Of a stretch of DNA of 64,000 nt, positions 4,584 to 64,000 are shown piece after piece. The position numbers were made by a program, and so were the translations under genes. The notes below the pieces were generated by a model. The model saw only the letters and a program-made list of their open reading frames with translations. It had not been told where the DNA came from and made no database searches. The stretch lies in assembly GCA_018897295.1 (NCBI GenBank), contig JAHILA010000014.1:3390-67389 (forward strand), written 5' to 3'. Position 1 is the first letter of the stretch, and each line of letters starts with the position of its first letter. The stretch comes from Patescibacteria group bacterium (lineage in GTDB: Bacteria > Patescibacteriota > Minisyncoccia > RBG-13-40-8-A).

Positions 4584-5348
4584 ATGGTATTATTTTATAT
4601 TTTGATTTTTGTTTTTGGGGCAATTATTGGCAGTTTTTTGAATGTTATTATTTGCAGATTGAATACAGGAGAATCAATTTTAAAAAATCGCTCCCATTGT
4701 CCTTTCTGCAATAAAAAATTGGTCTGGTACGAATTGATTCCAATCATAAGTTTTATTATTCAGTTGGGAAAATGCCAGAATTGCCACAAAAAAATTTCCT
4801 GGCAATATCCATTAGTGGAATTTTTTACAGGAATAATTTTTTTCTCAATACTTATTACTCAATATTCGTTACTTAATACTTTGTTCTTGCTTCTTATTTC
4901 ATGTTTTTTAATAATTATTTTTGTTTACGACTTTAAGCATTATCTGGTTGCTGATATAATCATCTATCCAGCTATCATTGTCGCCTTTTTATACCAGCTC
5001 CAATTTCCAATTTCCAATTTCCAATTTCCAATTTTCAATTATTTGTTAGCCGGACTAATAGCTGGGGGATTTTTTCTGGCAATTGTTCTGATTTCTAAGG
5101 GTAAATGGATGGGGGTAGGCGATGTTAAAATCGGGGTTTTAATGGGATTGATTTTCGGGATGCCATGGGTGTTTATTGCTTTATCTCTGGCATTTTTCAT
5201 TGGGGCCATTGTTTCTGTGGCATTATTGGCGCTTAAAAAGAAGACGCTTCAATCAGAGATTCCTTTTGGTCCATTTTTGGTTCTCGCTACTTTTGTCGTT
5301 ATTTTTTGGGGAGATATTTTATTAAATTGGTATTTGAATCTATTTTAA
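4584..5348 (+). CDS. pilD: Prepilin peptidase / N-methyltransferase PilD (peptidase A24)
   Basis: An N-terminal GSFLNV motif and a CPFC...CQNC tetracysteine zinc site are present. The protein is polytopic and located in the pilus operon. Confidence 0.8.
   Translation: MVLFYILIFVFGAIIGSFLNVIICRLNTGESILKNRSHCPFCNKKLVWYELIPIISFIIQLGKCQNCHKKISWQYPLVEFFTGIIFFSILITQYSLLNTLFLLLISCFLIIIFVYDFKHYLVADIIIYPAIIVAFLYQLQFPISNFQFPIFNYLLAGLIAGGFFLAIVLISKGKWMGVGDVKIGVLMGLIFGMPWVFIALSLAFFIGAIVSVALLALKKKTLQSEIPFGPFLVLATFVVIFWGDILLNWYLNLF
5001..5035 (+). repeat. Heptanucleotide tandem repeat inside pilD: (CAATTTC)x3 followed by two degenerate units.
   Basis: Read directly as caatttc caatttc caatttc caatttt caattat. 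It encodes QFPISNFQFPIFNY. Confidence 0.7.
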
Positions 5349-5351
5349 TTT

Positions 5352-5909
5352 ATGAAAAGATTTAAAGGCTATGCCTACCGGCAGGCAGGATTTACGCTTA
5401 TTGAGGTATTGGTAATAATGTTTATTATTTCCACGCTTTCCACTGTGCTTGTGGTTAATTGGCGTAAGAATGAAAAGCGTTATCAGCTTCAGCGTTCAGC
5501 CCAGACAGTTGTTCAAAACTTCAGAAAAGTTCAAAGTATGTCTTTGGCAGGCAAGAATTTGTGTGATCAGGACTCTCCTTGCATCCCTCGGAATTATGGA
5601 GTTCATTTTGGGAAAACCACTTTAACCTCTTATGTCATTTTTGCCGATAAAAATAACAATGGTAAATATGCCAGCGCAGTGGAGACCAATGAACATATAG
5701 AAACAATCTATCTTGAGTCCGGCATAGAACTTTCGTTATCTGTGGACTTAGATGTTGTTTTCTCGGTTCCGGACGGATTCGTTATGATTAATGCGAAACC
5801 GCTGACTACTGAAGCATCTCTGACTATTAAGCGAAGCGGAACAACTTGCCCTTCTTCTAACTGTAAGATCATAATAATAAAGAAAAGTGGCCAAATAACA
5901 ATACAATGA
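5352..5909 (+). CDS. Minor pilin / pseudopilin (GspH/FimT-like)
   Basis: The prepilin N-terminus reads AGFTLIEVLV. The leader is unusually long (MKRFKGYAYRQAG). Confidence 0.7.
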   Translation: MKRFKGYAYRQAGFTLIEVLVIMFIISTLSTVLVVNWRKNEKRYQLQRSAQTVVQNFRKVQSMSLAGKNLCDQDSPCIPRNYGVHFGKTTLTSYVIFADKNNNGKYASAVETNEHIETIYLESGIELSLSVDLDVVFSVPDGFVMINAKPLTTEASLTIKRSGTTCPSSNCKIIIIKKSGQITIQ

Positions 5910-6416: not shown

Positions 6417-6914
6417 ATGAAAAAGGCCATGCCTGCCGGCAGGCAGGGTTTTACATTAATAGAGCTTCTTGTTTCGATGTCCATATTCATAATAGTGATT
6501 ATGGTAGTTTTGGGTTTGTTTTCTGCAGCTATAAAAGCGCAGAGAAAAGCATTTGCTATGCAAGACGCCCAAGAAAATGCTAGATTTTTAATGGAATTTA
6601 TGGCTAAAGAAGTAAGGATGAGTGTAATTACTAGTAGTAATGGAACTTCACCCAATTTGACGCTTACGCGCTCTGACGGCGATAGTGTTACTTATAGTAT
6701 CAGTAGTAATAAAATTTACAGAAATAGTATTCAGGTAAGTTCTGATGAAGTTTATATTTCCGGAACTTTTTACACAGAAGGAGTTGGTTCTGAAGACGGC
6801 TTACAGCCAAAACTGACAATTGCGTTGAAGATTAAGACAACAGGCACTAAAGTCGAGGAAAGGGCCGAGATTAATATCCAAACTACTCTTTGCCAGAGAA
6901 ATCTTGATTTATGA
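6417..6914 (+). CDS. Minor pilin (PilW/GspJ-like)
   Basis: The N-terminus reads QGFTLIELLVSMSIF. The leader is long (MKKAMPAGRQ). Confidence 0.7.
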   Translation: MKKAMPAGRQGFTLIELLVSMSIFIIVIMVVLGLFSAAIKAQRKAFAMQDAQENARFLMEFMAKEVRMSVITSSNGTSPNLTLTRSDGDSVTYSISSNKIYRNSIQVSSDEVYISGTFYTEGVGSEDGLQPKLTIALKIKTTGTKVEERAEINIQTTLCQRNLDL

Positions 6915-8151: not shown

Positions 8152-8222
8152 ATCAGTGTTTATGTTTATTGTTTATGTTTATTGCGGTTTATTACATTTA
8201 TATATCCTGTATTTGTATACAT

Positions 8223-8250
8223 TTCTTCACGATCGAGAAAAAGTGTATAT
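8223..8250 (+). promoter_or_regulatory. Copy 1 of a 28-bp motif, TTCTTcACGATCGaGAAAAagTGTATAT
   Basis: It is near-identical to the motif at 8900-8927 and contains the palindrome CGATCG and a TGTATAT(A) -10-like end. Confidence 0.5.
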
Positions 8251-8280
8251 TTTTTTAAAATAATATGTTATGATGTATTT

Positions 8281-8841
8281 ATGAAATATAAATTACCGTT
8301 TACTGAAAAATTACTTTGGGATTTATATAATTTCAGCCATAAGACAGGAAGATTAATACTTAAAGCGCTTCCTAAAAAACATGGGTTGCCTTTTTCTAGT
8401 TTTAATATATTTAGAGATGAATGGACGAGTGAAAATAAGAATAAATATCTAAGAAAACAAAGTAGGAAAAAATTTGCCCTTTTAGTTTATCGACTTAAAA
8501 AGCAAGGGTATCTAAAAAAATTAAAAATTAAAGATAATTCAGCAATTGCGATTACTCAACAAGGACTAGATAAGATTTTAAGGATTAATTTTAAATTAAT
8601 GGATAAAAAAATCAGAAAAGATAATAAGTGGCAGATGGTTTTATTTGATATCCCTGAGGATAAGAGAAGAGGTAGGGATTTGTTTAGAAATGAATTAAAG
8701 TATCTAGGGTATAAAATGCTTCAAAAAAGTATTTGGGTTTGCCCATATGACACATTAAAAGAAACTAAGGATTTGATTAAAAGATATAATTTAGGAATTT
8801 GGGTAGAATTGCTTTTAGTTAATAAAATTGGGTTAAAGTAG
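8281..8841 (+). CDS. Winged-helix + Cas2/PaaX_C-fold protein; putative transcriptional regulator
   Basis: The C-terminal segment WQMVLFDIPEDKRRGRDLFRNELKYLGYKMLQKSIWVC matches the Cas2 / PaaX_C core pattern (hydrophobic-YD-...-R...-G-Q-SV-C). Start is taken at the internal Met (MKYKLP) rather than the track start 8182. Confidence 0.5.
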   Translation: MKYKLPFTEKLLWDLYNFSHKTGRLILKALPKKHGLPFSSFNIFRDEWTSENKNKYLRKQSRKKFALLVYRLKKQGYLKKLKIKDNSAIAITQQGLDKILRINFKLMDKKIRKDNKWQMVLFDIPEDKRRGRDLFRNELKYLGYKMLQKSIWVCPYDTLKETKDLIKRYNLGIWVELLLVNKIGLK

Positions 8842-19968: not shown

Positions 19969-21027
19969 ATGGATATTAAGAAAAAAATACTTTTTTTGGT
20001 GACTCAATCCGAGTTTGGCGGAGCCCAGCGCTTTATTTATAATTTGGTAACCAATTTAAATCAGGATAAATATAGTATTGCAGTCGCAGCAGGATTAGAA
20101 GGTGATAATGAAAACGGACTTTTATTTGCTTTAGAGAAAAAAGGGATTGATACAGGACATTTAAGATATCTTAGACGGTCAATTAATCCTTTTTTTGATT
20201 TCTTGGGCGTTATTGAGATTTTAAAATTGATAAAAAAAGAAAAGCCGGATATCTTATTTTTATGCAGTTCCAAAGCAGGATTTTTAGGGAGTTGGGCAGG
20301 AAAAAACAAAATAAAAAAAGTAATTTACAGAATCGGTGGATGGACTTTTAATGACCCTTGGCCAAAATGGAAAAAGAAATTGTATATTTGGATAGAGAAA
20401 ATAAGCGCTGGATGGAAAGATTACATTATCAATAATGCTGAATCAGACAAACAGCAGGCAATAAAAATAGGTATTAAGCCACAAAGGGGAATCTTAACCA
20501 TTTACAATGGAATTGATGCAGATAAACTGAAATTTTTGAATAAAGGAGAAGCAGGAAATTTCCTGCGATTAAATAATTCGGATTTCGTTGTTGGAACTAT
20601 TGCCAATGATTACCCGACTAAGGGATTAAAATACCTAAGAGAAGTCGAAGGAAAATTACAGGATATTAAGCTTGTAATATTGAGCAATATTCCTGACGCG
20701 TATAAATATTTAAAGGCATTTGACATCTTTGTTCTGTCGTCTGTAAAAGAAGGGTTTCCTTGGGTAATTTTAGAAGCAATGTCTGCCGGAGTGCCAATTA
20801 TTGCTACAAAAGTTGGAGCAATACCGGAAATTATCCAAAACAATGAAAATGGCATCTTGATAGAGCCAAAAAGCCCGAAAGCAATTATTGATGCAGTAAA
20901 GTTGTTAATGGATAATAAAGATTTAATGAGGAAATTAGCAATTAATGGCAGAAAAACAGTTATAGAAAAATTTAATCTGGAAAAAATGATTAATAGATAT
21001 GTAGAATTATTCGAATCTACGAATTGA
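19969..21027 (+). CDS. Glycosyltransferase family 4 (GT-B, retaining)
   Basis: The C-terminal EGFPWVILEAMSAGVPIIATKVGAIPEI motif fits the EX7E signature region. Start is set at ATG 19969, just after the upstream stop. The track ORF 19834 is an in-frame upstream extension that overlaps the previous gene. Confidence 0.8.
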   Translation: MDIKKKILFLVTQSEFGGAQRFIYNLVTNLNQDKYSIAVAAGLEGDNENGLLFALEKKGIDTGHLRYLRRSINPFFDFLGVIEILKLIKKEKPDILFLCSSKAGFLGSWAGKNKIKKVIYRIGGWTFNDPWPKWKKKLYIWIEKISAGWKDYIINNAESDKQQAIKIGIKPQRGILTIYNGIDADKLKFLNKGEAGNFLRLNNSDFVVGTIANDYPTKGLKYLREVEGKLQDIKLVILSNIPDAYKYLKAFDIFVLSSVKEGFPWVILEAMSAGVPIIATKVGAIPEIIQNNENGILIEPKSPKAIIDAVKLLMDNKDLMRKLAINGRKTVIEKFNLEKMINRYVELFESTN

Positions 21028-21094
21028 TATGCGAATCTACAAATAATTCGTTGATTCGGATAAATATTCGTATCATTCGGATAATATATTTATG
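21011..21094 (+). repeat. Copy A of a recurrent intergenic cis-element of about 85 bp; forward orientation
   Basis: CGAATCTAC direct repeats with about 20-bp spacing and ATTCGGATA direct repeats with 21-bp spacing. Near-identical copies occur at 21945-22036 (inverted), 26586-26673, 27074-27120 and 28838-28884. Confidence 0.85.
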
Positions 21095-21944: not shown

Positions 21945-22036
21945 CCGAATGATACGAATATGTATCCGAATCAACGAATTATTTGTAGATTCGCATATCA
22001 ATTTGTAGATTCGAATAATAAATTCATAAATTTATG
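21945..22036 (-). repeat. Copy B of the recurrent cis-element, reverse complement of copy A. Copies A and B form an inverted repeat of about 80 bp flanking the CE4 gene.
   Basis: The reverse complement matches copy A with about 2 mismatches over about 78 bp. It ends at the ATG of the 22034 gene. Confidence 0.85.
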
Positions 22037-23032
22037 AAAAACAATAAACAATTTCTTAGCGTATTAATAAGCGTTTTAATCTGCGTGTTTGTGTTTGGGG
22101 TAATTGTTTATGCCACAACAACAATCGGAGACAATATTTCCGCAGGCGGGACTTTAAGCGGAACCAATTTTTCAACAAATGATACTTATTACAACACGTT
22201 TGTAGGTACGGGGATAGAAACAACAACCACAGCCAGCTACAATGTATTTGTCGGTTATCGAGCAGGATATTCAAATGATGATGGAGCAGCAGATAGTAAT
22301 ACGGCCGTTGGTTATAATGCCCTTAACCTTAACACCACTGGTGATTCTAATTCGGCAATAGGTTTTTCTGCTCTTGGGAAAAATACTACCGGTATTGCGA
22401 ATTCAGCAATAGGAGTGGGTGCTCTTGGAGGTAATACTATAGGAGGTTATAATACTGCTGTTGGATATATGGCGGGTTATGCTGGAGTTGGAGAATACAA
22501 TAATAATACTCTTGTAGGTTTTAGGGTGGGTTATGGTAGTAGTGGTGTGTTTTCAAATAATACCGTAATGGGTTATGATGCAGGATATAATCTTACAGGA
22601 AATAATAATATTCTTTTTGGATATCAGGCAGGAGACGATTTAACGGCAGGAAGGAATAATATCGTTATTGGATATGATATTGATACTCTTTCTGCCACAG
22701 CAGATAATTATATGAATATTGGAGGATTATTATTTGGAGATTTATCTACTGCCAGCGCCAAGTATCTGGGCATTCTTGATTCTTCGCCCGCTTACACTCT
22801 TTCTGTTGACGGCACTGCATCTGTTTCGGGAACTACATATTTAGGCGATACTTATTTTAGCGGTGTGGTTTCTGCGTCTGATGCGAATGGTATGTTAGTG
22901 GGGGAAGGAATAAGTATCAAGACTGGAATTGCCTCGCCGAGCGGGGCCTGTGGTACAGCTGGAAGTCTTTATCTGGATACAACAGGGGGTATAAGTAGCT
23001 GTGGCACAGATAATAAGTGGGATCCTAAGTAA
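22034..23032 (+). CDS. Secreted repeat protein with Hep_Hag / tail-fibre-like Gly-Asn-Ala repeats; paralogue of the 60837 gene
   Basis: It has a signal peptide and repeats of the form NTAVGYNAL..NTTGDSNSAIGFSALG. The N-terminal about 65 aa and C-terminal about 60 aa are almost identical to the 60837 protein. Confidence 0.7.
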   Translation: MKNNKQFLSVLISVLICVFVFGVIVYATTTIGDNISAGGTLSGTNFSTNDTYYNTFVGTGIETTTTASYNVFVGYRAGYSNDDGAADSNTAVGYNALNLNTTGDSNSAIGFSALGKNTTGIANSAIGVGALGGNTIGGYNTAVGYMAGYAGVGEYNNNTLVGFRVGYGSSGVFSNNTVMGYDAGYNLTGNNNILFGYQAGDDLTAGRNNIVIGYDIDTLSATADNYMNIGGLLFGDLSTASAKYLGILDSSPAYTLSVDGTASVSGTTYLGDTYFSGVVSASDANGMLVGEGISIKTGIASPSGACGTAGSLYLDTTGGISSCGTDNKWDPK

Positions 23033-23075: not shown

Positions 23076-24368
23076 ATGCGCAAAAAAACTTTAACAATAG
23101 TATTTCTCTTGATTTTTACAGTAAGTATAATCAGCTGGCCATTATTGGCTTTAGCTGCTGATGAAGTTAGTTTTAGCGCTGACACTACAATTTTATTAGG
23201 TAATGGTGTATATTTAACCATATTAAATACAGGGGTCTGCGATGCAATCGTCGTTGGCACAAGTACTTTAACCGTTTCTCTTTCTACTAACTCTTCTTTA
23301 GAAATAAGATCATATAGTAAGTACGTATTGAACAATTCCTTGTTTACAACTGATTGCGAGCATAGCCAGAGTTATTCTCGATTAGTACTTACTGGACAAG
23401 CCGTAGCTACGGATTTGGTGATTACTCCCAATACTTCCGCAACCTGTCCTTCTTGGGGAAGTAGTGGCGGTGGAGGTGGCGGGGCTACTACGACTTCTGC
23501 TCAGCCAACTACAACTACTGGTCAAGTAACTGCCACCGCTTCTGGCGGAGGAAAGACAACTTTTATTACCACTGAAACTGCTACGGCCACAGTTGATTTA
23601 CCGGCAAGCGCGGTTACTTCATCTACAAATATAGCAATATCAATAGAAACCAAGGCAACGGTTACGTCTAGTAAACCAGTGCCATCAGGACAAAATGTGG
23701 TGGGCGGATATATCTATAATTTTACTGCTACTGCTGGGAGTACTGCAATAACTACATTTTCCAAAGACATTACACTGACCTTTACTTATACCGATAGCCA
23801 GGTAACAGGGTTAAATGAAGATACATTAAAGGTTTATTATTGGGACGGAAGTAAATGGGCAGCTTTAACTGGAACACTGAATAAAACGAATAACACGATT
23901 ACTGTTTTAACAAATCATTTTACCTATTTCGCAATATTGGGAGATTCGGGTACAACATCAACAACAATGGCTAAACCAGAAGATTATGGATTAAAAGAAG
24001 GAGATTTAATCAGGGCTCAAGGGGATTTTGACATCTTTATTATCAGCCAGTATGGCTATAAAAGATTATTCCTTAATCCGACTATCTTTAATATGTACGG
24101 CCATCTTAATGGAGGATGGAATGCAGTAAAAACCGTATCTACGGCAACCAGAGATGCGTTTATTACTTCTACTCATTATCGCTTTGTAGATGAAGATAAA
24201 GTATATCATCTGGAAGTAACGGGCGAGGATACTGGTACTTTGCATTGGCTGAATATGACTGGAGAGAATTTTTTGGCTCAAGGAGGAAAATCTGAGGATA
24301 TCTTCACTATTAATAAATCAGAATTGGACTGGTATTCTAAAGGCGCTGATATAACTTCCTTAAAATAA
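23076..24368 (+). CDS. Secreted surface protein with a Thr/Gly-rich linker and the shared module at its C-terminus
   Basis: It has a signal peptide, a low-complexity GGGGGATTTSAQPTTTTGQ linker and a C-terminal 125 aa region about 75 % identical to the 59011 protein C-terminus. Confidence 0.7.
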   Translation: MRKKTLTIVFLLIFTVSIISWPLLALAADEVSFSADTTILLGNGVYLTILNTGVCDAIVVGTSTLTVSLSTNSSLEIRSYSKYVLNNSLFTTDCEHSQSYSRLVLTGQAVATDLVITPNTSATCPSWGSSGGGGGGATTTSAQPTTTTGQVTATASGGGKTTFITTETATATVDLPASAVTSSTNIAISIETKATVTSSKPVPSGQNVVGGYIYNFTATAGSTAITTFSKDITLTFTYTDSQVTGLNEDTLKVYYWDGSKWAALTGTLNKTNNTITVLTNHFTYFAILGDSGTTSTTMAKPEDYGLKEGDLIRAQGDFDIFIISQYGYKRLFLNPTIFNMYGHLNGGWNAVKTVSTATRDAFITSTHYRFVDEDKVYHLEVTGEDTGTLHWLNMTGENFLAQGGKSEDIFTINKSELDWYSKGADITSLK

Positions 24369-25527: not shown

Positions 25528-26578
25528 TTTTATTAATATCTTTTTCAGTAAACCAGTTTTGAAGAGGGAAATTAATAATGCGTTTTGCAGTTTCGGCAGT
25601 ATTAGGGAATTCGTTAAATAATGGTTTTTGCCAGATACGCGAACAGAAAATCCCTTTCTTTCTTAATTTATTGAATAATTCGTCGCGGTTTGTATTTTTA
25701 GGCACAAGCGCAGATAAATAGGTAAAAGTATTATTTTCAGATTCCTGCTTGTCTGCCGATGAGGCAGGCACCTCAAAACCTATTTCTGTTAATTTCTTTT
25801 GAAAGTATTTTGCCAAGTTGATTCGTTTATTGAGATTGGTTTCAAGATTATCCAGATAGTAATTTACAATTTTTAAACATCCTTTTGATGCCTTTCTTGT
25901 CTCGTCGTAGCCCCGTAGATGCAGGGGCGAAGGCGGATTAATTCTCCTAAACAATTCCGACAATCCAGCCAGCATTGGAAACAACCTCAAAAATTTTACA
26001 ATATTAAATAATCTTGATTTATATTTTGGCAATTCTAATTCGATTTGATTTTTACAAATCAGCATTCCTCCGTTTATAACAGGAAACAATTTAGCAAAGC
26101 TGAAAAATAAAGCATCCCCGAATTTTTCAGGGGACATCGGTGGCGCAATATGCGCGCAATCCTCAATGATTTTTAAATTATATTTTTTGGCGATTCCCAG
26201 GATTCTATCCATTTCAATTGGCAGTCCGTAAGTGTGGCAGATTAAAATAGATTTAGTCAGTGGAGTAATCTTTGACTCAATATCAATAGAATCAGCATGA
26301 AAAGTTTTGAGATTCGTATCCAGATAAACCGGCTTAATATTATATTTTTCTAAAATCGGTTTTAAAATATCACAGATATAGGCAGGCATAATCATTTCAG
26401 AGTTTTCTAGATTCAGCTGTTGTATTGCTAGCCGGAAAGCAGACCTGCCAGAGTTAGTGAAAATAATTTGGTAATCAGGAAAAATCTTAGCTAATTTATT
26501 TTTTAAATCAGCTTCAGAAAATTTTCTGAAGAATACTCGTAAGGGGAATTTTTTAAATTGTGGATGCGCAAAATACAT
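25496..26578 (-). CDS. DegT/DnrJ/EryC1/StrS-family PLP-dependent sugar aminotransferase
   Basis: About 360 aa with a fold-type I layout. A putative PLP lysine sits in FSFAKLFP. It shows the typical DegT N-terminal substrate region and lies in a glycan locus. Confidence 0.6.
   Translation of the reverse strand: MYFAHPQFKKFPLRVFFRKFSEADLKNKLAKIFPDYQIIFTNSGRSAFRLAIQQLNLENSEMIMPAYICDILKPILEKYNIKPVYLDTNLKTFHADSIDIESKITPLTKSILICHTYGLPIEMDRILGIAKKYNLKIIEDCAHIAPPMSPEKFGDALFFSFAKLFPVINGGMLICKNQIELELPKYKSRLFNIVKFLRLFPMLAGLSELFRRINPPSPLHLRGYDETRKASKGCLKIVNYYLDNLETNLNKRINLAKYFQKKLTEIGFEVPASSADKQESENNTFTYLSALVPKNTNRDELFNKLRKKGIFCSRIWQKPLFNEFPNTAETAKRIINFPLQNWFTEKDINKITDGILSSMG
25901..25937 (-). repeat. 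Degenerate GC-rich element copy inside the DegT gene
   Basis: The reverse complement, ccgccttcgcccctgcatctacgggg, shares the 11-mer ccgccttcgcc and cctgc with the 31489 copy. Confidence 0.4.
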
Positions 26579-26585
26579 AATTTTA

Positions 26586-26673
26586 TTATCCGAATCTACA
26601 AATTAATATGCGAATCTACAAATAATTCGTTGATTCGGATACATATTCGTATCATTCGAATAATATATTTATG
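26586..26673 (+). repeat. Copy C of the recurrent cis-element (forward), in a divergent promoter region
   Basis: It is near-identical to copy A and lies between the divergent DegT (-) and GxxExxY (+) genes. Confidence 0.85.
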
Positions 26674-27069
26674 GAAAAAGTTTATAAAGATGTTTTATAT
26701 CCCGAATTATCATATAAAGTTTGTGGTTTATGTTTCAGAATTCATAATGAATTGGGGCGATTTTATAATGAATTGCAATATGCTGATGCGCTCGAGAACT
26801 TATTTAAAATAGAAAAAGTTGAATATAAAAGAGAGATACCATTGCCGCCGTCATTCAATGGTGAAAACGAAAGAAGAAACATTCCAGATTTTATAATACA
26901 AGAAACGATTATTTTAGACTTAAAGGCTAAACGCATTATTACTAAAGACGATTATTATCAAATGAAGAGATATTTGAACGCTTACAATAAAGAACTTGGA
27001 TTAATTGTAAATTTCAGAGAATATTATTTAAGTCCCAAAAGAGTTTTAAGTAAAAATAATTTAAATTAA
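26671..27069 (+). CDS. GxxExxY-family protein
   Basis: 132 aa. The N-terminal LSYKVCGLCFRIHNELGRFYNELQYADAL matches the family signature. This family is often found in exopolysaccharide loci. Confidence 0.6.
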   Translation: MEKVYKDVLYPELSYKVCGLCFRIHNELGRFYNELQYADALENLFKIEKVEYKREIPLPPSFNGENERRNIPDFIIQETIILDLKAKRIITKDDYYQMKRYLNAYNKELGLIVNFREYYLSPKRVLSKNNLN

Positions 27070-27073
27070 TAAG

Positions 27074-27120
27074 CATTCGTTGATTCGGATACATATTCGT
27101 ATCATTCGGATAATACCATG
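27074..27120 (+). repeat. Copy D (right half only) of the recurrent cis-element
   Basis: cattcgttgattcggatacatattcgtatcattcggataata lies immediately upstream of the 27118 ATG. Confidence 0.8.
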
Positions 27121-28278
27121 CGTATTTTGATGCCAATTTTACATTATCCTCCAATAATCGGCGGCTTTGAGATTTTCTCTCAGAATATTGCCGAGAGAAT
27201 CGGCAAAACCGATAATGTTTTTGTTATTACCAGCAGGGTTGCGAATGCGCCCAGCAAAGAAATAAACAACAATTTAAGAATACTCAGAACCTCGCCCTGG
27301 TCGCTGAAAAACCTGTCTTATAGCAAGCCATGGTTTATTGTTGGGGCAATGATATGGATTTTTTTTAAGTCAATTAAATTGATTAAAAAAGAGAAAATAG
27401 AGCTAATCCATGCTCAAGGGTTTTTGAGCGGAATTATCAGTTTGATATTAAAAAAACTGACAAAAGTCCCATATTTACTTACTATTCAATCGGCTGATTT
27501 TAGTGTATACCATCCACGCTTGAATATCAATATCATTAAGGCGATTTATAAAAAGATGGAAAAGGCGGTTTTTAAAAATGCTGATTATTGCCACGCAGTA
27601 AGCAATTATTTGGCAGACCATATAAGGCAATACTATGTGCAGAAAGTTGAGATGATCCCGAATGGAGTTAATTGGGAAAGATTTAGGCCGGATGTTGATA
27701 AATTAAAAACCAGAAAAGAACTTGGGTTTGATGCGGAAAATTTAATTGTTTGCGTTTCGCGGCTGGAGCATAAGAATGGAACGCACGATTTAATTGAATC
27801 GGTAAAATATCTTCAGGATTTTGATTTTAAACTAATGATTTGCGGCAGTGGTTCAGAAAAAGAAAAATTAGAGAAAATGATAAAGGATTTTAACTTGGAA
27901 GACCGAGTTTTCCTTTTGGGGGATATTCTCCATAGTGAATTACCCAAATATGTTGCTTGCGCGGATATTTTTGTCAGGCCGTCTTTAGCAGAGGGATTCG
28001 GGATAGTTTTTTTGGAGGCAATGGCATGCAGTGTTGCGGTTATCGGAACTCCTGTGGGCGGGATACCCGATTTTTTAAAAGATAGAGAAACGGGTCTTTT
28101 CTGTGAGCCGGGAAATCCGAAGGATATTGCCGAAAAGATAAAAAAACTTTTAGCAGACAAAGAATTATATCAAAAACTGACAGTAAATGGTTTGAAAATG
28201 GTTAGGGAAATATATAACTGGGATCAGGTAGTGAGGAAATTAAAAGAGTTATATACTAAAACAATAAATAATAATTAA
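27118..28278 (+). CDS. Glycosyltransferase family 4
   Basis: An AEGFGIVFLEAMACSVAVIGTPVGGIPDFL motif is present. Confidence 0.8.
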   Translation: MRILMPILHYPPIIGGFEIFSQNIAERIGKTDNVFVITSRVANAPSKEINNNLRILRTSPWSLKNLSYSKPWFIVGAMIWIFFKSIKLIKKEKIELIHAQGFLSGIISLILKKLTKVPYLLTIQSADFSVYHPRLNINIIKAIYKKMEKAVFKNADYCHAVSNYLADHIRQYYVQKVEMIPNGVNWERFRPDVDKLKTRKELGFDAENLIVCVSRLEHKNGTHDLIESVKYLQDFDFKLMICGSGSEKEKLEKMIKDFNLEDRVFLLGDILHSELPKYVACADIFVRPSLAEGFGIVFLEAMACSVAVIGTPVGGIPDFLKDRETGLFCEPGNPKDIAEKIKKLLADKELYQKLTVNGLKMVREIYNWDQVVRKLKELYTKTINNN

Positions 28279-28283
28279 GAAGT

Positions 28284-28316
28284 AACCCGCCGCAAGCGCG
28301 AAGCGCAAGCAGGCGG
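28284..28316 (+). repeat. Intergenic GC-rich hairpin element related to the in-frame GC-rich elements
   Basis: cccgccgcaagcgcgaagcgcaagcaggcgggcaag. A CCCGCC...GGCGGG stem encloses GCGC-GAA-GCGC, and the 3' end ggcgggcaag is shared with the 31489 and 62401 copies. Confidence 0.5.
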
Positions 28317-28325
28317 GCAAGAAAT

Positions 28326-28862
28326 ATGAAAAAAGTTATTCCATTTTTAGCAATAGCTTTTGTGGTCATCGGAGCAGCGCTGAGATTTGCTCCGCATTTT
28401 CCGAATTTTGCGCCAATTGCGGCAATGGCATTATTCGGCGGAGTTTATCTTAATAAAAAATATGCCTTGATCGTTCCGATAGTTGCGATATTTGTCAGTG
28501 ATTTGTTTATTGGTTTTTACGATGCCAAATTAATGGCAGGGGTATACTTAAGTTTTATTTTGGTTGGTTTAATCGGATTATTTATTAAGAAACATAAAAA
28601 TATAGGCACAATAATCGGCGGAACTGTTTTAGGTTCTGTTTTGTTTTTTCTGATTACCAATTTTGCTGTTTGGGCGTTCTATTCGTGGTATCCGCACACT
28701 TTAAATGGCTTAAGTCAGTGTTTTACAATGGCATTGCCATTTTTCAGAGGTACGTTAATTGGTGATTTGTTCTATGTCGCAATTCTATTTGGAGTTTATG
28801 AAGTGGTTATAGCTTCGGTTAGAAAAAAACATTTATTAGTAGATTCGAATATTAATTTGTAG
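28326..28862 (+). CDS. Integral membrane protein with 5-6 TM helices; possibly a small-substrate transporter component
   Basis: It is polytopic and hydrophobic with a FAPHFPNFAPIAAMALFGG N-terminus. Its function is not recognised. Confidence 0.3.
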   Translation: MKKVIPFLAIAFVVIGAALRFAPHFPNFAPIAAMALFGGVYLNKKYALIVPIVAIFVSDLFIGFYDAKLMAGVYLSFILVGLIGLFIKKHKNIGTIIGGTVLGSVLFFLITNFAVWAFYSWYPHTLNGLSQCFTMALPFFRGTLIGDLFYVAILFGVYEVVIASVRKKHLLVDSNINL

Positions 28863-28884
28863 ATTCGAATAATATATTTATATG
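28838..28884 (-). repeat. Copy E of the recurrent cis-element (left module inverted, fused to the conserved AATAATATATTTAT end)
   Basis: gtagattcgaatattaatttgtagattcgaataatatatttat lies upstream of the 28882 ATG. Confidence 0.75.
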
Positions 28885-29940
28885 AAAATCGTAATTGCAT
28901 CAGGAATATACCCGCCGGATATTGGCGGACCAGCAACATACTCGCAAACTACTGCGCGGGAATTTACTAAACAAGGAATTAATGTCTCTTTGATTTGTTA
29001 TTCGGATAAAAAACAAGAAGATAATGAAAATTTTAAAATTGTCAGAATTTTAAGAAAAAATAAATTATTCAGATATTTATTGTATTTTTGGAACCTTTTG
29101 AAATTAGCCAGAAATTGCGATGTAATTTATGCCCAAGGTCCATTAGCAGCTGGTTTGCCAACAATGTGGGTGAGTAAAATTTTGAGAAAGAAATTTGTGA
29201 TTAAAGTTGTTGGTGATTATGCCTGGGAACAAGGGGTAAATCAATTTGGCGTTAAAGAATTAATTGAAGAATTCCAAAATAAAAAATATAATTCCAGAAT
29301 TGAAAGAATAAGAAGAATTCAGAAAAAAGTTTGTAAAAGCGCGGACAAAATTATTGTCCCGAGCGAGTTTTTAAAGAAAATAGTAAAAGGCTGGGGGATT
29401 AATGAGAATAAAATTAAGGTTATTTATAATGCTTTTTCGGGAATTGAAAATTGGAAATCGGAAATTGAAAATTTGAATTTAGATGGCGATATAATTATTT
29501 CAGCTGGTAGGCCAGAGCCATGGAAAGGATTTGATACTCTAGATGAGATAATGTCGGATTTGCTAAAAGAAAATCCGAAATTCAAATTGGTTATAGCGAC
29601 TAAATTATCTCATAATGAACTAATGGCGTATTTTAAGACAAGTATGATTTTCGTACTGAATTCCGGGTATGAAGGATTTTCGCATATCCTTTTGGAAGCA
29701 ATGGCTTGCGAATTGCCTGTGATTACAACCAATGTTTGTGGGAATCCCGAAATCGTCAGAAACAGTTATAATGGATTATTGGTTGAGTATAATAATAAAG
29801 AGCAAATAAAAAATGCTATTTTAAGATTATGGAAAGATGAAAATTTGCGAAGAAAATTTATTGAGAACGGAAAAAAGACATTAGAGAAATTTAAATTAGA
29901 AATAATACTGGAAGAAACATTAAACGTTTTAAGACCATGA
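28882..29940 (+). CDS. Glycosyltransferase family 4
   Basis: A YEGFSHILLEAMACELPVITTNVCGNPEIV motif is present. Confidence 0.8.
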   Translation: MKIVIASGIYPPDIGGPATYSQTTAREFTKQGINVSLICYSDKKQEDNENFKIVRILRKNKLFRYLLYFWNLLKLARNCDVIYAQGPLAAGLPTMWVSKILRKKFVIKVVGDYAWEQGVNQFGVKELIEEFQNKKYNSRIERIRRIQKKVCKSADKIIVPSEFLKKIVKGWGINENKIKVIYNAFSGIENWKSEIENLNLDGDIIISAGRPEPWKGFDTLDEIMSDLLKENPKFKLVIATKLSHNELMAYFKTSMIFVLNSGYEGFSHILLEAMACELPVITTNVCGNPEIVRNSYNGLLVEYNNKEQIKNAILRLWKDENLRRKFIENGKKTLEKFKLEIILEETLNVLRP

Positions 29941-31374: not shown

Positions 31375-32535
31375 ATGAAACTTTTAATCATTTCAGGCGA
31401 TACAGCCTTGGCTCAGGGCAAAAAAGGGCCATTTTATTATGTGTTGGAAGAATTGTCTAAATATTGGGAGAGGATTGATATTATCTGTCCCCGCCTTCGC
31501 CAACCTGCCTCGCCGGCAGGCGGGTGCTTCGGCGGGCAAGCAAAACCATGTGTTCAAAAATTTTTTAATAACGTATATGTGCATAGTTCTAATTTGCCTT
31601 TAATCCTTCAGCCGTGGTTTATTTTTAAAAAAGGAGCAGAGATTTATAAAGAGCAGAAATTTGATTTGTTCACAATTCATAGCTATCCTCCTTTTTATAA
31701 TGATATTGGCGGATTGTGGCTTTACAATAAAATAAAAACCCCTTACTTTTTAGAAGTAATGCATATCACTGGTTATCCCAAAGCAGGGAATTTTAAGGAG
31801 TGGTTTTATAAAATTTTAACTAAATATTTTATAAATTTTTTTTCAAAGAGAGCTAAAGCAATTAGAGTGATTAATCAGATACAAACACCAGAATTTTTGA
31901 AAAAAGCAGGGGTTGATGAGAAAAAGATAAAAATTGCACCGGCATTTTATATCGATTTTGAAGTATTTAAACCCAATGCCGCAGAAAAAAAATATGACTT
32001 GGTTTTTTCCGGTCGATTAGCGAAGAATAAAGGTATATTTTTATTACTGAAAGCAGTGAGAAGTCTCAAATCACAGATTCCAAACATCAAGCTTGTAATT
32101 ATTGGAAGTGGGCCGTTGGAGAAAAGGATCAAGAAATATATTATAAAGAATAAATTAGAAAATAATGTGGAATTTGTCGGTTGGTTGCCGACCATAAATG
32201 ATTTGGCGAGAATTTATAATCAATCAAAAATTTTAGTTATGCCGTCATTTAACGAAGGTGGACCGAGAGTAACCTTAGAAGCAATGGCTTGTAAAGTGCC
32301 GGTTATTACAAGCAGAGTCGGGGTGATGCTGGATATAATTAAGCATGGTGAAAATGGAATATTTATCAAATGGAATGCCGAGGATATTGCTGAGAAGATA
32401 ATTTTATTATTAAAGGACGACAATCTAAGGCAGAAGATAGCTGAAAACGGCTGCCAAACAATCCAACGATTTGAAAGAAAAAAAGTAATTGAAAATTATG
32501 CAAAAATATATCAAGCTTTGCTACGTTCTGCCTGA
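31375..32535 (+). CDS. Glycosyltransferase family 4 carrying an in-frame GC-rich element insertion
   Basis: A NEGGPRVTLEAMACKVPVITSRVGVMLDI motif is present. Start is set at ATG 31375 immediately after the upstream stop; the track 31354 start overlaps the upstream gene. Confidence 0.75.
   Translation: MKLLIISGDTALAQGKKGPFYYVLEELSKYWERIDIICPRLRQPASPAGGCFGGQAKPCVQKFFNNVYVHSSNLPLILQPWFIFKKGAEIYKEQKFDLFTIHSYPPFYNDIGGLWLYNKIKTPYFLEVMHITGYPKAGNFKEWFYKILTKYFINFFSKRAKAIRVINQIQTPEFLKKAGVDEKKIKIAPAFYIDFEVFKPNAAEKKYDLVFSGRLAKNKGIFLLLKAVRSLKSQIPNIKLVIIGSGPLEKRIKKYIIKNKLENNVEFVGWLPTINDLARIYNQSKILVMPSFNEGGPRVTLEAMACKVPVITSRVGVMLDIIKHGENGIFIKWNAEDIAEKIILLLKDDNLRQKIAENGCQTIQRFERKKVIENYAKIYQALLRSA
31489..31548 (+). 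repeat. GC-rich palindromic element of about 57 bp, in-frame within the GT4 gene. It is translated as [20 protein letters not shown].
   Basis: ccccgccttcgccaacctgcctcgccggcaggcgggtgcttcggcgggcaagc is about 93 % identical to 62401-62457. Confidence 0.85.
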
Positions 32536-33610
32536 TTATAATTCCAAAACAGACAGCCATTTTTTCCATCTGTATGAATTTTTGGAAAAGGCGTCTAAAA
32601 AACTGGACATATTTTTAATCGTAGAAAGAAGTAGTAGCAACAAAGAAGATATCGGGAGTGTTATGCCGGATATAAAATTTATTTATATCCAAAAATTTAA
32701 GTTTATCCCTTTTCGCTTTATTGAGAGTTTTATTGCTGTTTTAATCGCCAGAATTAAAGGATATAAAAACTTTTATACCCATTATTGTTATATCGGCGGA
32801 ACCAACGCCGCAATTATATCCAGGGTTTTCGGCGGGAAGTCGTATTATTGGAATTGTGCCATGAATTGGTTGTTTAAGAAAAAAGATTCTTCAAAAATAG
32901 GATATGAATTGTGCTTGAAATGGTCTCATTATCTGGTAACCGGCAGCGCGGGGATGAAGAAAGGATATATTGAACATTATCATCTGAGTCCGGAAAGAGT
33001 TAAAGTAATGCCTAATTGGATAAACCTGGAAAGATTTAAACCGGGAAACTTCCAGCCCAAGGCTGGTCCGCCTCGGGCGGAAAAGACTTTATTATTTATT
33101 CATTGGCTTTCAAAAAGGAAGGGCGCGGATATGATTGTGCCGATAGCAAAACATTTATCCCAAATACTAAATACAAAATACAAAATATTGGTTGCAGGCA
33201 ATGGTCCGTATGGAGATGATTTATTGAAAGAAATAGAGGAAAACAAATTAAAAAAAATTATCGAAGTTTTGGGAGCCATTCCTAATGAAAATATAATTAA
33301 GTATTACGAAAAGACGGATATATTTATCATGCCGTCTATGGAAGAAGGATTTCCGAGAGTGTTGTTGGAAGCAATGGCAATGGGCGTTCCTTATATTGCT
33401 TCCGATATCGGAGCAGTCAGGGAAATTTCTTCGGAAATCGCTCAAAGATTTCTAGTCAGGTCAGGAGACGCCGAAATGTTTGCCCATAAAATAGAAAACT
33501 TAATATCGGACGAAAGGGTATACGAAGATTTCAGAAAAGAAGAATTGCAAAAAATCAAGGAATATTCAATAGATAAAGTGATTGATATATTTGTAAAATT
33601 ATTTAAATGA
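32489..33610 (+). CDS. Glycosyltransferase family 4
   Basis: An EEGFPRVLLEAMAMGVPYIASDIGAVREI motif is present. The start is either 32489 or 32498, and the gene overlaps the upstream gene. Confidence 0.75.
   Translation: MKIMQKYIKLCYVLPDYNSKTDSHFFHLYEFLEKASKKLDIFLIVERSSSNKEDIGSVMPDIKFIYIQKFKFIPFRFIESFIAVLIARIKGYKNFYTHYCYIGGTNAAIISRVFGGKSYYWNCAMNWLFKKKDSSKIGYELCLKWSHYLVTGSAGMKKGYIEHYHLSPERVKVMPNWINLERFKPGNFQPKAGPPRAEKTLLFIHWLSKRKGADMIVPIAKHLSQILNTKYKILVAGNGPYGDDLLKEIEENKLKKIIEVLGAIPNENIIKYYEKTDIFIMPSMEEGFPRVLLEAMAMGVPYIASDIGAVREISSEIAQRFLVRSGDAEMFAHKIENLISDERVYEDFRKEELQKIKEYSIDKVIDIFVKLFK
33051..33081 (+). repeat. Possible degenerate GC-rich element copy in the GT4 gene
   Basis: cccaaggctggtccgcctcgggcgg compares with ccaacctgcctcgccggcaggcggg. 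Confidence 0.3.
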
Positions 33611-60813: not shown

Positions 60814-60836
60814 AATAATTAATAAATAAAAAATTT

Positions 60837-61900: not shown

Positions 61901-64000
61901 ATGTTGGAAAAATTATTCGGGGATCCGAATAAAAGATATTTGAATAAAGTCCAGCCGATTGTGGAGAAAATAAATGAGCTCGAAAAAGAATTCGAGCGTT
62001 TTTCTAACGAGGATTTAAAAAATAAAACTAAAGAATTTAGAAAAAAAATAGAAAACTACGGAGGACAGACCTCCGTAGTGCTTGATGATATTTTGCCGGA
62101 AGCATTTGCTGCTGTGCGGGAGGCATCGAAAAGAACTTTAAATCAAAGACATTTTGACGTACAGCTTGCCGGAGGCATTGTTCTGCACCAGGGGAAAATT
62201 GCAGAAATGAGAACCGGAGAAGGAAAAACATTAACCGCAACCCTATCATTGTATTTGAATGCATTAGAGGGAAAAGGCGCGCATCTGGTTACAGTTAACG
62301 ATTATTTAGCCAGAAGAGATGCTGTTTGGATGGGGCAAATATATAATTTTCTTGGATTTAGCGTGGGATGTATAAATCATGAAACTTCTTATATTTATGA
62401 CCCCGCCTACGCCAACCTGCCTCGCCGGCAGGCGGGGGCTTCGGCGGGCAAGCCAGAACTAAAATTAGACAAAGAACGTGATGAGGCGGGTGGGTTCAAA
62501 GTGGTGCAGGAATTTTTGAAACCGTGCAGTAGAAAAGAAGCTTATAGCGCTGATATTTTGTATGGCACTAATAATGAATTTGGGTTTGATTTTTTGCGGG
62601 ATAATATGGCTTATGATAAAAACGAGATGGCGCAAAGAGCTTCTAATTACGCAATTATTGATGAAGTAGACAGTATTCTAATAGATGAAGCCAGAACTCC
62701 TTTAATTATTTCTGCGCCAGATGTGGAATCAGCCCAGCTTTACAAGAAATTTTCCAAAATCGCTCCGCAATTAAAAAAGGACATTGATTTTAAAATTGAT
62801 GAAAAAATGCGCGCGGCAACCTTAACTAATGCAGGCATGGATAAAGTGGAAAAAACCTTGGGAGTCGGGAATATTTATGATGAAGCCGGAATTCAATTAG
62901 TGCATCATTTGGAACAGGCCTTGCGCGCGGAAGTCCTATTTAGAAGAGATAAGGATTATGTGGTGCGCAATGGGGAAGTGATTATTGTTGATGAATTCAC
63001 TGGTAGGTTGATGCCTGGTAGGCGCTATTCCGGCGGGTTGCATCAGGCATTAGAGGCAAAAGAAAATGTGCAAGTACAGAAGGAATCGAAAACTTTGGCA
63101 ACAATTACTTTCCAGAATCTTTTCAGAATGTATAAAAAATTAGCCGGAATGACAGGAACTGCATTAACTAATGCTGAAGAGTTCGACAAGGTTTACAAAT
63201 TGGACACCATAGTTGTGCCGACTAATAAGCCGATGATTAGGAAAGATTTGCCAGATAAGATTTACAAGACCGAGCAAGGGAAATTTAAAGCAATTGTTCA
63301 GGAAATAAAAGAACGCTATGAAAAAGGTCAGCCAGTTTTGGTGGGCACGATTTCAATTGAAAAAAATGAGCATTTGGGAATGCTCTTAAAAAAAGAGGGA
63401 ATACAATGCGAGATTTTAAATGCCAAACAGCACGAAAGGGAAGGCGCGATTATTGCCCAGGCAGGAAGATTAGGAGCTGTGACAGTTGCAACCAATATGG
63501 CAGGTCGTGGAGTTGATATTGTTTTGGGGGGCAACCCTCAAGATCCTGAGCAGGGTCGAAGGGTTTGTGACGTTGGCGGACTTCATGTCCTTGGCACCGA
63601 GCGCCATGAAGCAAGAAGAATTGATAATCAATTAAGAGGAAGGTCTGGCAGGCAGGGAGATCCTGGCTCTACTGAATTTTTTGTTTCATTGGAAGACGAA
63701 TTAATGCAGAGATTCGGTTCTGAGAAGATTAAGACCCTGATGGATGCTTTGAAAATTCCCGAGGACCAGCCAATTGAAAATAAGATGATTTCATCGGCGA
63801 TTGAAAAAGCCCAGGCAAAGATTGAAGGATATAATTTTGATATCAGGCATCATGTTTTGGAATATGACGAGGTGATGAATAAGCACAGGGAAACGATTTA
63901 TAAAATGAGAAAAGAAATTTTATTCCAAGCAACAGATAAAGAGATGCATCAGAAAGTTAAGGAATTAATGACAGAGGACAAGTATAAGCAATATTGTAAT
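61901..64000 (+). CDS. secA: Preprotein translocase ATPase SecA. The 3' end is cut by the window edge. It carries an in-frame GC-rich element insertion.
   Basis: The N-terminus reads [14 protein letters not shown]. Walker A is [13 protein letters not shown] and the DEAD-like motif is [20 protein letters not shown]. The frame stays open to the window end. Confidence 0.9.
62401..62457 (+). repeat. GC-rich palindromic element of about 57 bp, in-frame within secA. It is translated as [18 protein letters not shown].
   Basis: ccccgcctacgccaacctgcctcgccggcaggcgggggcttcggcgggcaagc is about 93 % identical to 31489-31548 but is read in a different codon phase. Confidence 0.85.

Follow-up and report, generated by a model that had tools for sequence, protein, structure and literature searches.

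A probable selfish repeat of two nested small hairpins inside secA and a GT4 glycosyltransferase gene of a Patescibacteria bacterium

The window analysed here is the whole 64,000-nt stretch of a contig from a Patescibacteria bacterium. It carries a gene for a GT4-family glycosyltransferase, the homologues of which carry Pfam Glycos_transf_1 / Glyco_trans_1_4, and secA, and a GC-rich segment of 53 nt, CCCCGCCTWCGCCAACCTGCCTCGCCGGCAGGCGGGKGCTTCGGCGGGCAAGC, was common to the two (Table 1). The best relatives of the host proteins were from Patescibacteria/Paceibacterota. The two copies were identical at 51 of 53 positions (96 %). With three flanking bases added, the match was 56 nt long at 95 % identity; beyond these borders the similarity stopped, and the flanks were unrelated. 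No match at all was obtained in any of 100 dinucleotide-preserving shuffles of the window. The GC content of the copies was 77–79 %, versus 35.5 % for the whole window.

A previous description made from the letters of this DNA (the sequence-only reading) had placed a repeat of about 57 bp, about 93 % identical and 65–70 % GC, at starts 31489 and 62401. The starts were correct and the repeat is real; its length and identity were corrected to the values above, and its GC content was higher than had been stated.

Both open reading frames (ORFs) ran uninterrupted across the segment, and the GT4 copy had no stop codon in any of the six frames. The first C of CCCGCC was codon position 2 in the GT4 gene and codon position 1 in secA, giving phases 1 nt apart. 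Open host frames, this offset and conservation at the level of nucleic acid had all been proposed before. They were borne out, the last because the same 53 nt are read in two phases. The length had also been said to be a multiple of three. This was true of the net insertions relative to the orthologues (45 nt in the GT4 gene and 36 nt in secA), but not of the shared unit of 53 nt.

The segment had been taken for one element of about 57 bp. Judged from the relatives of its parts, it is instead a composite of two nested modules with independent distributions. The inner module, designated HP, is a 21-nt hairpin (CCTGCCTCGCCGGCAGGCGGG) with the stem CCTGCC/GGCAGG, the loop TCGCC and the tail CGGG, and a hairpin energy of -11 kcal/mol. 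The outer module (CCCGCC…GGCGGGCAAG) is a hairpin of about 31 nt, CCCGCCTWCGC-N4-GCTTCGGCGGGCAAGC, the apical loop of which is occupied by HP. The minimum-free-energy fold of the composite was a single long imperfect hairpin of -29 to -32 kcal/mol. A hairpin core of the C(UUCG)G type had been suggested. Its sequence, GCTTCGGC, was present, but the apex in the computed fold was the UCGCC loop of HP, not GCUUCGGC. Compared with shuffles, the fold gave z = -3.3 for the GT4 copy and z = -1.05 for the secA copy.

Among 120 GT4 orthologues, most had a short version of the insert site (e.g. CPKTEQKVFNVHKN), in agreement with the claim that the segment is an insertion. The DNA of six GT4 orthologues was compared at the nucleotide level, and four states of the site were distinguished. 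The site was empty in L126. It contained only the outer module in L123/L124 (…CCCCGCCTTCGCCAA/TGCTTCGGCGGGCAAGC…; junction …CGCCAA/TGCTTCGG…) and in L127. The window and L125 had the outer module with HP (…CGCCAA[CCTGCCTCGCCGGCAGGCGGG]KGCTTCGG…), and L121 had it with HP inverted at the same position (…CGCCAG[CCCGCCTGCCGGCGAGGCAGG]GGCTTCGG…). The latter three states were exactly 21 nt (7 codons) apart, and target duplication was not visible. In L121 the outer arms formed a compensatory pair, CCCACC…GGTGGG. As read from these alleles, HP behaves as an exact unit of 21 nt that can be gained, missing or turned round, without target duplication. The outer hairpin of about 31 nt would be the older layer, and HP would have landed afterwards in its apical loop.

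The 120 SecA relatives compared were all from Patescibacteria. The segment bounded on one side by VNDYLA had a modal length of 87 aa (27 of 107 orthologues), versus 99 aa in the window. The closest relative (P0001/L128, 80–84 % identical) was without the insert and read DPEYKKPTKEEDEQRDE / YIYDPEYKKPTKEEDEQRDELGGFKV at the site, so that here too the segment had rightly been called an insertion. In this relative, secA was split into three called ORFs (L128 10001–12432) by apparent frameshifts, possibly through long-read assembly error.

Tolerance of the inserts as loops had also been supposed, and in AlphaFold2 models both peptides fell in low-confidence loops predicted to be disordered. The GT4 model had a mean predicted local distance difference test score (pLDDT) of 88.8, and its sole segment below 50 was the element (residues 45–58, PASPAGGCFGGQAK), between strands 34–39 and 61–65. 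In the model of the SecA N-terminal part, pLDDT was below 50 at residues 176–185, inside the element peptide (168–185). The site is a naturally expandable loop: in T. maritima SecA (3DIN and relatives), a different long insertion occupies this point of nucleotide-binding domain 1. Alignments to B. subtilis and E. coli SecA picked up again only past the insert point.

Both loops were hot spots, at which other lineages had different peptides derived from hairpins or heptamers (e.g. …IPASPAGRSKIKSQ… in P0046). In a distant lineage (P0076/L131), this SecA loop held the outer module without HP, within a heptamer-like array, and P0178/L130 had a different 21-nt hairpin within an (ATTCAAA)n array. 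Beyond the window end (0–1.6 kb; codons about 702–843), secA had at least three further GC-rich in-frame inserts, of which three that were missing from L128 are listed in Table 1. Inserts were thus present at four places of secA, one in the window and three just past it.

HP was scanned for by exact match in one genome per species (596 Gb), and the outer module by the pattern CCCGCCTWCGC-N(1-31)-GCTTCGGCGGGCAAG in metagenome contigs. The figures cover the matches listed, the totals of loci and contigs being lower bounds for both modules. The exact 21-mer was found at no fewer than 120 genome loci (129 copies), with non-homologous flanks. Most of these loci were 34–50 % GC, where the chance expectation is far below one. 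Among the hosts listed were about 40 Patescibacteria, drawn from many classes, and some 28 Bacteroidota. Cultured isolates were present among the Bacteroidota, namely Aureibaculum sp., Agriterribacter humi YJ03, Namhaeicola litoreus CCUG 61485 and Lutimonas vermicola IMCC1616. Further hosts were Omnitrophota, Acidobacteriota, Gammaproteobacteria, Elusimicrobia, Planctomycetia, Nitrospirae, Armatimonadota, Sorangium and one Bathyarchaeota archaeon; none of the 120 loci had a cyanobacterial label. Most carriers were metagenome-assembled genomes (MAGs). More than one copy was present in 8 of the 120 loci, and the extra copies, which the search had not selected, were exact in nine cases, with one mismatch in four and with two mismatches in two.

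The outer module was found in at least 120 metagenome contigs of 33–73 % GC (122 copies). Its loop was 4 nt long in 67 of the 122 copies (CAAG, CGAG, TGAA, TAAA) and 7 nt long in 18, and in about a dozen it held nested hairpins of 13–28 nt of other sequences. None of the 122 outer copies contained HP, and none of the 129 HP copies lay inside an outer module. The composite of HP in the outer module therefore appears to be specific to the lineage of the window. A lack of further copies, or an ancestral coding sequence, had been set out by the sequence-only reading as the contrary cases. Neither held, since many more copies existed and the segment is not ancestral coding sequence. The occurrence of both modules far outside the lineage and the additional inserts of secA had escaped that reading.

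The outer module was present at one position of thymidylate-synthase-like genes (…YG.QWR.W[PAYAKASAGK]P…) in three contigs (L157, L161 and L205), read in the same phase as in the secA of the window. It also frequently adjoined tRNA genes (L132 3033–3132; L184 4829–4925; also L155, L228, L154, L134, L216/L235/L230/L137 and L236), usually on the opposite strand and overlapping the first 3–5 nt of the tRNA 5' end, the GGCGGG arm being the start of the acceptor stem. Many outer copies had a third arm (…GGCGGGCAAGCCCGC), which would permit an alternative hairpin. One HP copy (L010) was considered as lying within a functional tRNA. This was rejected, since ARAGORN and Rfam called no tRNA there, only a likeness to a 5' tRNA fragment.

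Rfam gave no match for the whole window at the gathering threshold, and for the element at E<=10 only a chance-level P9 small RNA. A resemblance to the twister ribozyme was dropped for want of an Rfam match. In the literature, neither of the module sequences (full text, 17-mer core, DNA and RNA spelling) was found, nor were such hairpin repeats in Patescibacteria.

Of the listed HP copies, 79 of 129 (61 %) lay in open frames of at least 150 codons, 'coding' status being a matter of open-frame length save for nine genes with Pfam support. These were UvrA, UvrB, TopA, QueA, RluA, an archaeal DinB and a P-type ATPase, and in cultured strains a SpoU methylase (Aureibaculum) and DUF4256 (A. humi). 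Frame use in the 79 copies was skewed towards the readings rich in Pro/Ala/Gly/Ser (PASPAGG 31, PPAGEAG 17, LPRRQAG 12, RLPARQ 7, PACRRGR 6, CLAGRR 6; chi-square p = 9e-7). This fits a selective filter on the encoded peptides, which are rich in Pro/Ala/Gly/Ser and lie in predicted disordered loops between secondary-structure elements. What lets module copies persist in genes is a length divisible by three together with the absence of stop codons from all frames.

The insertion sites had features in common. HP interrupted tandem heptamer or octamer arrays in phase and without duplication (L097, L056, L058, L116, L030, L088, L089 and the viral L129), for example (CAATTTC)n in L097 and (AGTCCAA)n in L056, and the outer module occurred in heptameric repeats as well (L133, L233, L156, L219). 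Direct repeats of at least 7 nt flanked 13 % of the HP sites versus 2.7 % of the controls. HP was also found within HP-like hairpins (L034, L041, L050, L055). With HP removed, the junction fell in a predicted hairpin loop at 24 % of the sites versus 14 % of control positions (p = 0.008). The base 3' of HP was C or T in 112 of 125 copies (p = 8e-21), and the 5' flank had no conserved motif across the copies listed. Target-site duplication was absent from every resolved HP or outer junction (GT4 orthologues, L103 and the arrays).

An Acidobacteriota contig (L103) contained four copies of the Acido-Lenti-1 RNA (Rfam RF01687). Two of these were empty (…CACTCCGCTTTG directly followed by CTCCGTGCC…) and two were filled with HP, and these paralogues of one genome differed by exactly 21 nt. 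Acido-Lenti-1 was multi-copy in Acidobacteriota contigs (L103 944–976 and other copies; L042 7866–7941; L031, L106), with HP in some of the apical loops, and the motif itself behaved as a dispersed repeat. In the cultured strain N. litoreus CCUG 61485 (L094 1640–2600), a stretch of 1 kb held no fewer than five copies of a repeat of about 70 nt (AACCACCCCGG…CCACCC[hairpin]CTCCTAAAAGGAGGGGA). The hairpin at the centre was HP in two of the copies and CCTGCCAAAGGCAGGCAGG in two others, and one copy had a variant of HP with 3 mismatches; the inner hairpin was thus exchangeable within the larger repeat.

We interpreted the shared segment as selfish repeat DNA of two nested very small hairpin modules, and not as coding sequence shaped by its protein, with a probability of about 0.78. 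That such segments behave like selfish repeats colonising coding sequence had been the view of the sequence-only reading, and it is upheld. Movement of HP at the DNA rather than the RNA level is favoured, because HP occurs in both orientations at one site, on both strands, and in coding as well as intergenic DNA. Since the composite was seen nowhere else, and HP has the same position and orientation in the outer module in both genes, we infer that all 53 nt were copied together, as a unit, from locus to locus within the lineage, the GT4 copy being the older. This would suggest that the ends of the outer module are recognised and that the loop content is a passenger; the freely varying content of the loop agrees with recognition of the ends.

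The movement might consist in a DNA-level, enzyme-defined cut-or-copy-and-ligate event supplied in trans, a proposal that we make only tentatively. Enzyme-defined cleavage and ligation are invoked because the boundaries are invariant and the pyrimidine preference is one-sided. The enzyme would act on single-stranded or extruded hairpin DNA and on slipped repeat arrays, and insertion would fall immediately 5' of a pyrimidine and favour hairpin apices. It is likewise conceivable, if speculative, that the modules form a pan-prokaryotic class of autonomous-looking mobile DNA of 21–31 nt, the smallest mobile units known, with a sequence held invariant across bacterial phyla and at least one archaeon by some novel machinery that is widely shared or spreads horizontally. 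If so, this machinery would precisely insert hairpins into structured or single-stranded DNA without target duplication, and loops of 7–10 residues would continually be added to essential proteins (SecA, UvrA/B, TopA).

A number of results weigh against the picture of mobile modules. Pfam detected no transposase among the unassigned ORFs of the window, and none was present in the window. An all-versus-all comparison of 4547 ORFs from about 250 loci gave no protein family recurring beside the copies; a neighbouring transposase as the mover was rejected on these grounds. The orientation of the copies had no bias with respect to local GC skew (HP 53 versus 54, outer module 41 versus 38); GC skew over loci of 8 kb is a weak proxy for the replication strand. 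This argues against a strictly lagging-strand mechanism of the type of the insertion sequences (IS) IS200/IS605, which was rejected. The preference for hairpin apices is only about 2-fold, an enrichment and not a rule. All four assemblies carrying the secA region of the window were filled, and no filled/empty polymorphism within one species was seen at either window site.

Also on this side, two independent site-specific insertions of HP and copying as a unit are indistinguishable, given that L121 has HP in the opposite orientation at this very nucleotide. It is also difficult to reconcile modules that are letter-perfect across phyla with any known transposition system. Exact-match scans give counts from which abundance, variant range and full host range are not readable. 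A search of 2.9 million viral contigs produced 1 HP match and 5 outer-module matches, and plasmids produced only near-chance partial matches in GC-rich replicons, none of them convincing; phages as vector or reservoir and plasmids as vector were rejected accordingly. Finally, translation of the insert by the ribosome is most likely, but is assumed.

The main rival holds that the modules spread without an enzyme of their own, by ectopic gene conversion or replication template switching: a fork stalls at a hairpin or slipped heptamer array, and the nascent strand copies a stretch elsewhere and returns. The lack of a transposase, a recurrent neighbour gene, target duplication and strand bias is as expected from such a process, and so is the enrichment of the sites for places at which forks stall, namely hairpin apices and tandem heptamer arrays. 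The ends of the secA element also resemble the ancestral codons (CCG GAA TAC versus CCC GCC TAC, and AAG AAA CCC versus GGC AAG CCA), which is compatible with microhomology. On the other hand, the 21-nt boundaries were nucleotide-identical in unrelated targets of several phyla with no common flanking microhomology, and the strong one-sided preference for a pyrimidine resembles that of an enzyme which cleaves or ligates. In template switching, the sequence copied normally comes from close by, which would give locus-specific hairpins, not one invariant sequence. We therefore consider spread without an element-specific enzyme unlikely.

That the hairpins are selected mRNA structures, acting in transcript stabilisation, translational pausing or protein binding, is quite improbable. 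Selection on RNA could account for the great stability of the composite fold, at -29 to -32 kcal/mol and with the z of -3.3 in the GT4 gene, but the secA fold was no better than shuffles (z = -1.05) and no Rfam family matched. It could also account for the strong conservation of sequence across hosts and for the compensatory change that preserves the outer stem in L121, but not for a 21-mer that was found either way round at the same site and whose strand relative to genes varied. Some intergenic copies were followed by T runs and were terminator-like (L075, L100); others were in unrelated genes, intergenic DNA, a tRNA fragment and heptamer arrays, and the orthologues function without the insert.

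Origin of each hairpin de novo, with convergence by mutational or GC-biased processes and no transfer, is very hard to sustain. It would explain the continuum of related hairpins, such as the loop-less CCTGCCGGCAGG, CCTGCCAAAGGCAGGCAGG in Namhaeicola and other GC-rich hairpins at the same protein loops. It would not explain why identity extends to the loop TCGCC and to the unpaired tail CGGG in more than 120 copies and why the non-ascertained extra copies are mostly exact, when, very GC-rich genomes aside, fewer than 1 chance occurrence of the 21-mer is expected in 596 Gb and filled and empty sites differ by a clean block of 21 nt. An assembly or sequencing artefact, which the predominance of MAGs and the use of 21 as a common assembler k-mer size might suggest, is scarcely credible with HP in cultured isolates and long-read chromosomes (Aureibaculum, A. 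humi, N. litoreus, L. vermicola, Sorangium) and at orthologous positions in independent samples and assemblers, and with a non-random use of frames, and neither is ancestral low-complexity coding sequence under protein-level selection, which is excluded by the different phases in the two genes and the absence from most orthologues.

By analogy, the closest known systems are the small dispersed repeats (SDRs) of cyanobacteria, and then repetitive extragenic palindromic (REP) elements and Rickettsia palindromic elements (RPEs), which share parts of the anatomy. SDR1-8 of heterocyst-forming cyanobacteria, which Elhai et al. reportedly described in 2008, are said to be 21–27-nt hairpins that occur in heptamer arrays, are nested and make no target duplication. 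An RNA intermediate was reportedly proposed for them, and frequent in-frame residence in housekeeping genes is not known to be among their features. HP at 21 nt is of the same size class, forms a hairpin and is found in tandem heptamer repeats. Further likenesses are nesting in other small elements and in own copies (HP in the outer module and in HP-like hairpins), precise insertion without target duplication, filled and empty sites, and no known transposase. The SDRs are reported as limited to one cyanobacterial group, whereas the modules here occur, invariant, in many phyla, Patescibacteria among them. A DNA-level event is also favoured here by the two orientations found at one site, and the likeness to SDR1-8 is one of anatomy as described. 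Precise insertion of SDR5 into HIP1 is supported through papers that cite Elhai et al.

REP elements and their hairpin-forming doublets (REPINs) are mobilised by REP-associated tyrosine transposases (RAYTs), which are IS200/IS605-like (Bertels & Rainey 2011, PMC3116915; Di Nocera et al. 2013, PMC3733652), and some REPs are described from within genes, in particular those for repair, such as uvrA and polymerases (PMC3733652). The modules resemble them as GC-rich imperfect palindromes of 20–40 nt with many dispersed copies and no coding capacity, which implies mobilisation in trans, and in being partly intragenic in repair genes, HP being present in UvrA, UvrB, TopA and DinB. Neither module has the GTAG or CGTC end tag. 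REPs are mainly extragenic inverted pairs, whereas most modules here were single units and 61 % of the HP copies lay in long open frames; and REP families are specific to species or genera, in contrast to modules that are letter-perfect across phyla and without strand bias. No RAYT gene was found in the 64-kb window or its flanks, and no recurrent neighbour family in about 250 loci. Palindromes derived from IS200/IS605 differ in the target, of which only the 3' pyrimidine and no 5' sequence is conserved here, and in the lack of orientation bias against GC skew, a noisy proxy.

The segment had been said to carry the hallmark of RPEs. It does work like an RPE, being palindromic and in frame in unrelated protein genes in different phases, with tolerated extra peptides and in a small AT-rich genome, but by host, size and end tag it is not one. 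RPEs are about 100–150 bp long and belong to Rickettsia and relatives; the element here is a 53-nt composite of modules of 21 and about 31 nt in a Patescibacteria MAG, with no apparent sequence similarity to them. RPEs are described as ending in the tetranucleotide CGTC (PMC3733652; Ogata et al. 2000 as cited there). Neither CGTC nor GACG was present in either 53-nt copy.

Short GC-rich hairpins also spread in AT-rich genomes as the mobile GC clusters or double-hairpin elements of fungal mitochondria and the 'byp' elements of Magnusiomyces. These likewise insert in coding regions and nest in one another. The GC clusters differ in being organellar and in often creating short target duplications, and byps in being skipped by the ribosome, so that the frame need not hold, whereas here the frame is held and stop codons are absent. 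Miniature inverted-repeat transposable elements (Correia/NEMIS, RUP, Nezha and others) are described as non-autonomous, structured, dispersed and sometimes intragenic (PMC3733652). They are 70–300 bp long, with the terminal inverted repeats of a parent IS and target-site duplications; the modules are 21–31 nt, with neither duplication nor parent IS.

Until now, selfish palindromic DNA in frame was a peculiarity known from Rickettsia and a small number of species rich in REPs. What is new is a similar anatomy in Patescibacteria, whose genomes are streamlined, with four places of the essential secA affected, and the presence of both modules, letter-perfect, in very distant phyla, beyond any known transposition system. 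Very small mobile repeats had earlier been reported only from some cyanobacteria, with a mechanism that was never explained. The cultured carriers among Bacteroidota make the movement of 21-nt elements testable in the laboratory. The modules give rise to spurious 'hypothetical proteins', make orthologues look more divergent than they are, and can disrupt gene calling and assembly. In conserved proteins they also mark, as a natural map, the loops that tolerate insertions.

Table 1. Host genes, modules and related hairpins (window positions unless a locus is named; L252, source contig)
Feature	Position	Strand	Remarks
Host gene 1, GT4-family glycosyltransferase	31375..32535	+	ATG 31375 likely start; listed ORF begins TTG 31354
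Composite copy 1, 53 nt	31489..31541	+	in frame in GT4 gene; 19-residue reading
Outer module, left arm CCCGCCTTCGCCAA	31490..31503	+	found without the 21-mer in orthologues L123/L124, L127
HP CCTGCCTCGCCGGCAGGCGGG in GT4 gene	31504..31524	+	encodes PASPAGG; exact 21 nt missing in L123/L124/L127, inverted in L121
Outer module, right arm TGCTTCGGCGGGCAAGC	31525..31541	+	from GT4 orthologue comparison and metagenome outer-module copies
Host gene 2, secA	61901..64000	+	continues past window end; 852 aa in source contig
Composite copy 2, 53 nt	62401..62453	+	in frame in secA; 17-residue reading
HP in secA	62416..62436	+	encodes LPRRQAG; phase shifted by 1 nt versus GT4
secA insert, two adjacent CCCGCC…GGCGGG hairpins	L252 13169-13246		encodes PAVSAERKQAGPPQSEGLGGD; one is a paralogue of 28286-28321
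secA insert, reversed outer module with different nested hairpin (GEVGLPAEVPTKVGTKVG)	L252 13484-13545		
secA insert, 8-residue replacement in C-terminal zinc-finger motif	L252 13552-13594		CPCG-ATHPDGRP-KKYKHCCG versus CPCGSGKKYKKCHG
Intergenic relative of outer module, CCCGCC GCAAGCGCGAAGCGCAAGCA GGCGGGCAAG	28286..28321	+	z = -4.3; paralogue in C-terminal part of secA
Degenerate outer-like arm TCCGCCTTCGCC with different nested hairpin	25896..25938	-	in frame in DegT/DnrJ-type aminotransferase gene; peptide NPPSPLHLRGYDETRK
Two adjacent GC-rich hairpins CCAGCCCAAGGCTGG, TCCGCCTCGGGCGGA	33052..33081	+	in frame in neighbouring glycosyltransferase gene (QPKAGPPRAE)
Loop-less HP relative CCTGCCGGCAGGCAGGG	6432..6448	+	pilin-like leader MKKAMPAGRQGFTLIE
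Loop-less HP relative, one mismatch, CCTACCGGCAGGCAGG	5374..5389	+	another pilin-like leader YAYRQAGFTLIE

Relatives of the modules were found elsewhere in the window (Table 1). At the site of the hairpin pair in the neighbouring glycosyltransferase gene, orthologues had other inserts or none, and a pair resembling it harboured an HP copy in L059. The two loop-less relatives of HP directly preceded the GFTLIE processing motif of pilin-like genes (…YRQAGFTLIE and …MPAGRQGFTLIE). A heptamer array, (TCCAATT)x6, lay within a prepilin-peptidase-like gene (4999–5040), and a complementary one, (AATTGGA)x5, within a glycosyltransferase gene (29442–29477); arrays like these harboured HP in other loci.

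Six HP or outer loci (L024, L115, L174, L012, L048, L219) contained genes for small four-helix-bundle proteins of the 23S-rRNA-intervening-sequence type. These genes were 1–4 kb from the hairpin and not adjacent to it, and several had upstream open-frame extensions of heptamer-array peptides.

In the pilus gene region of the window, an ORF (8182–8841) had a PaaX central / Cas2-like domain (Pfam PF20803, PF09827), with no CRISPR array nearby. The window also contained an AT-rich repeat of about 89 nt (21006–21094, 26585–26673 and 27035–27123, with inverted relatives at 21968–22028 and 28822–28882), which stopped at the ATG of the downstream gene and had sub-repeats of the ATTCGAATCTAC type. Two of these repeats flanked a small PD-(D/E)XK (PDDEXK_3) gene (26671–27069), as if it had been inserted into a duplicated leader, and PDDEXK_3 genes were also present in the equivalent cluster of L121 and L125. 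Two pairs of stretches (22014–23032 and 60817–61898; 23968–24267 and 60416–60715) were paralogous at 74–82 % DNA identity. One pair was a repeat-rich secreted protein starting MKNNKQF and the other the C-terminal domain of adjoining large surface proteins, and the second pair was directly upstream of secA.

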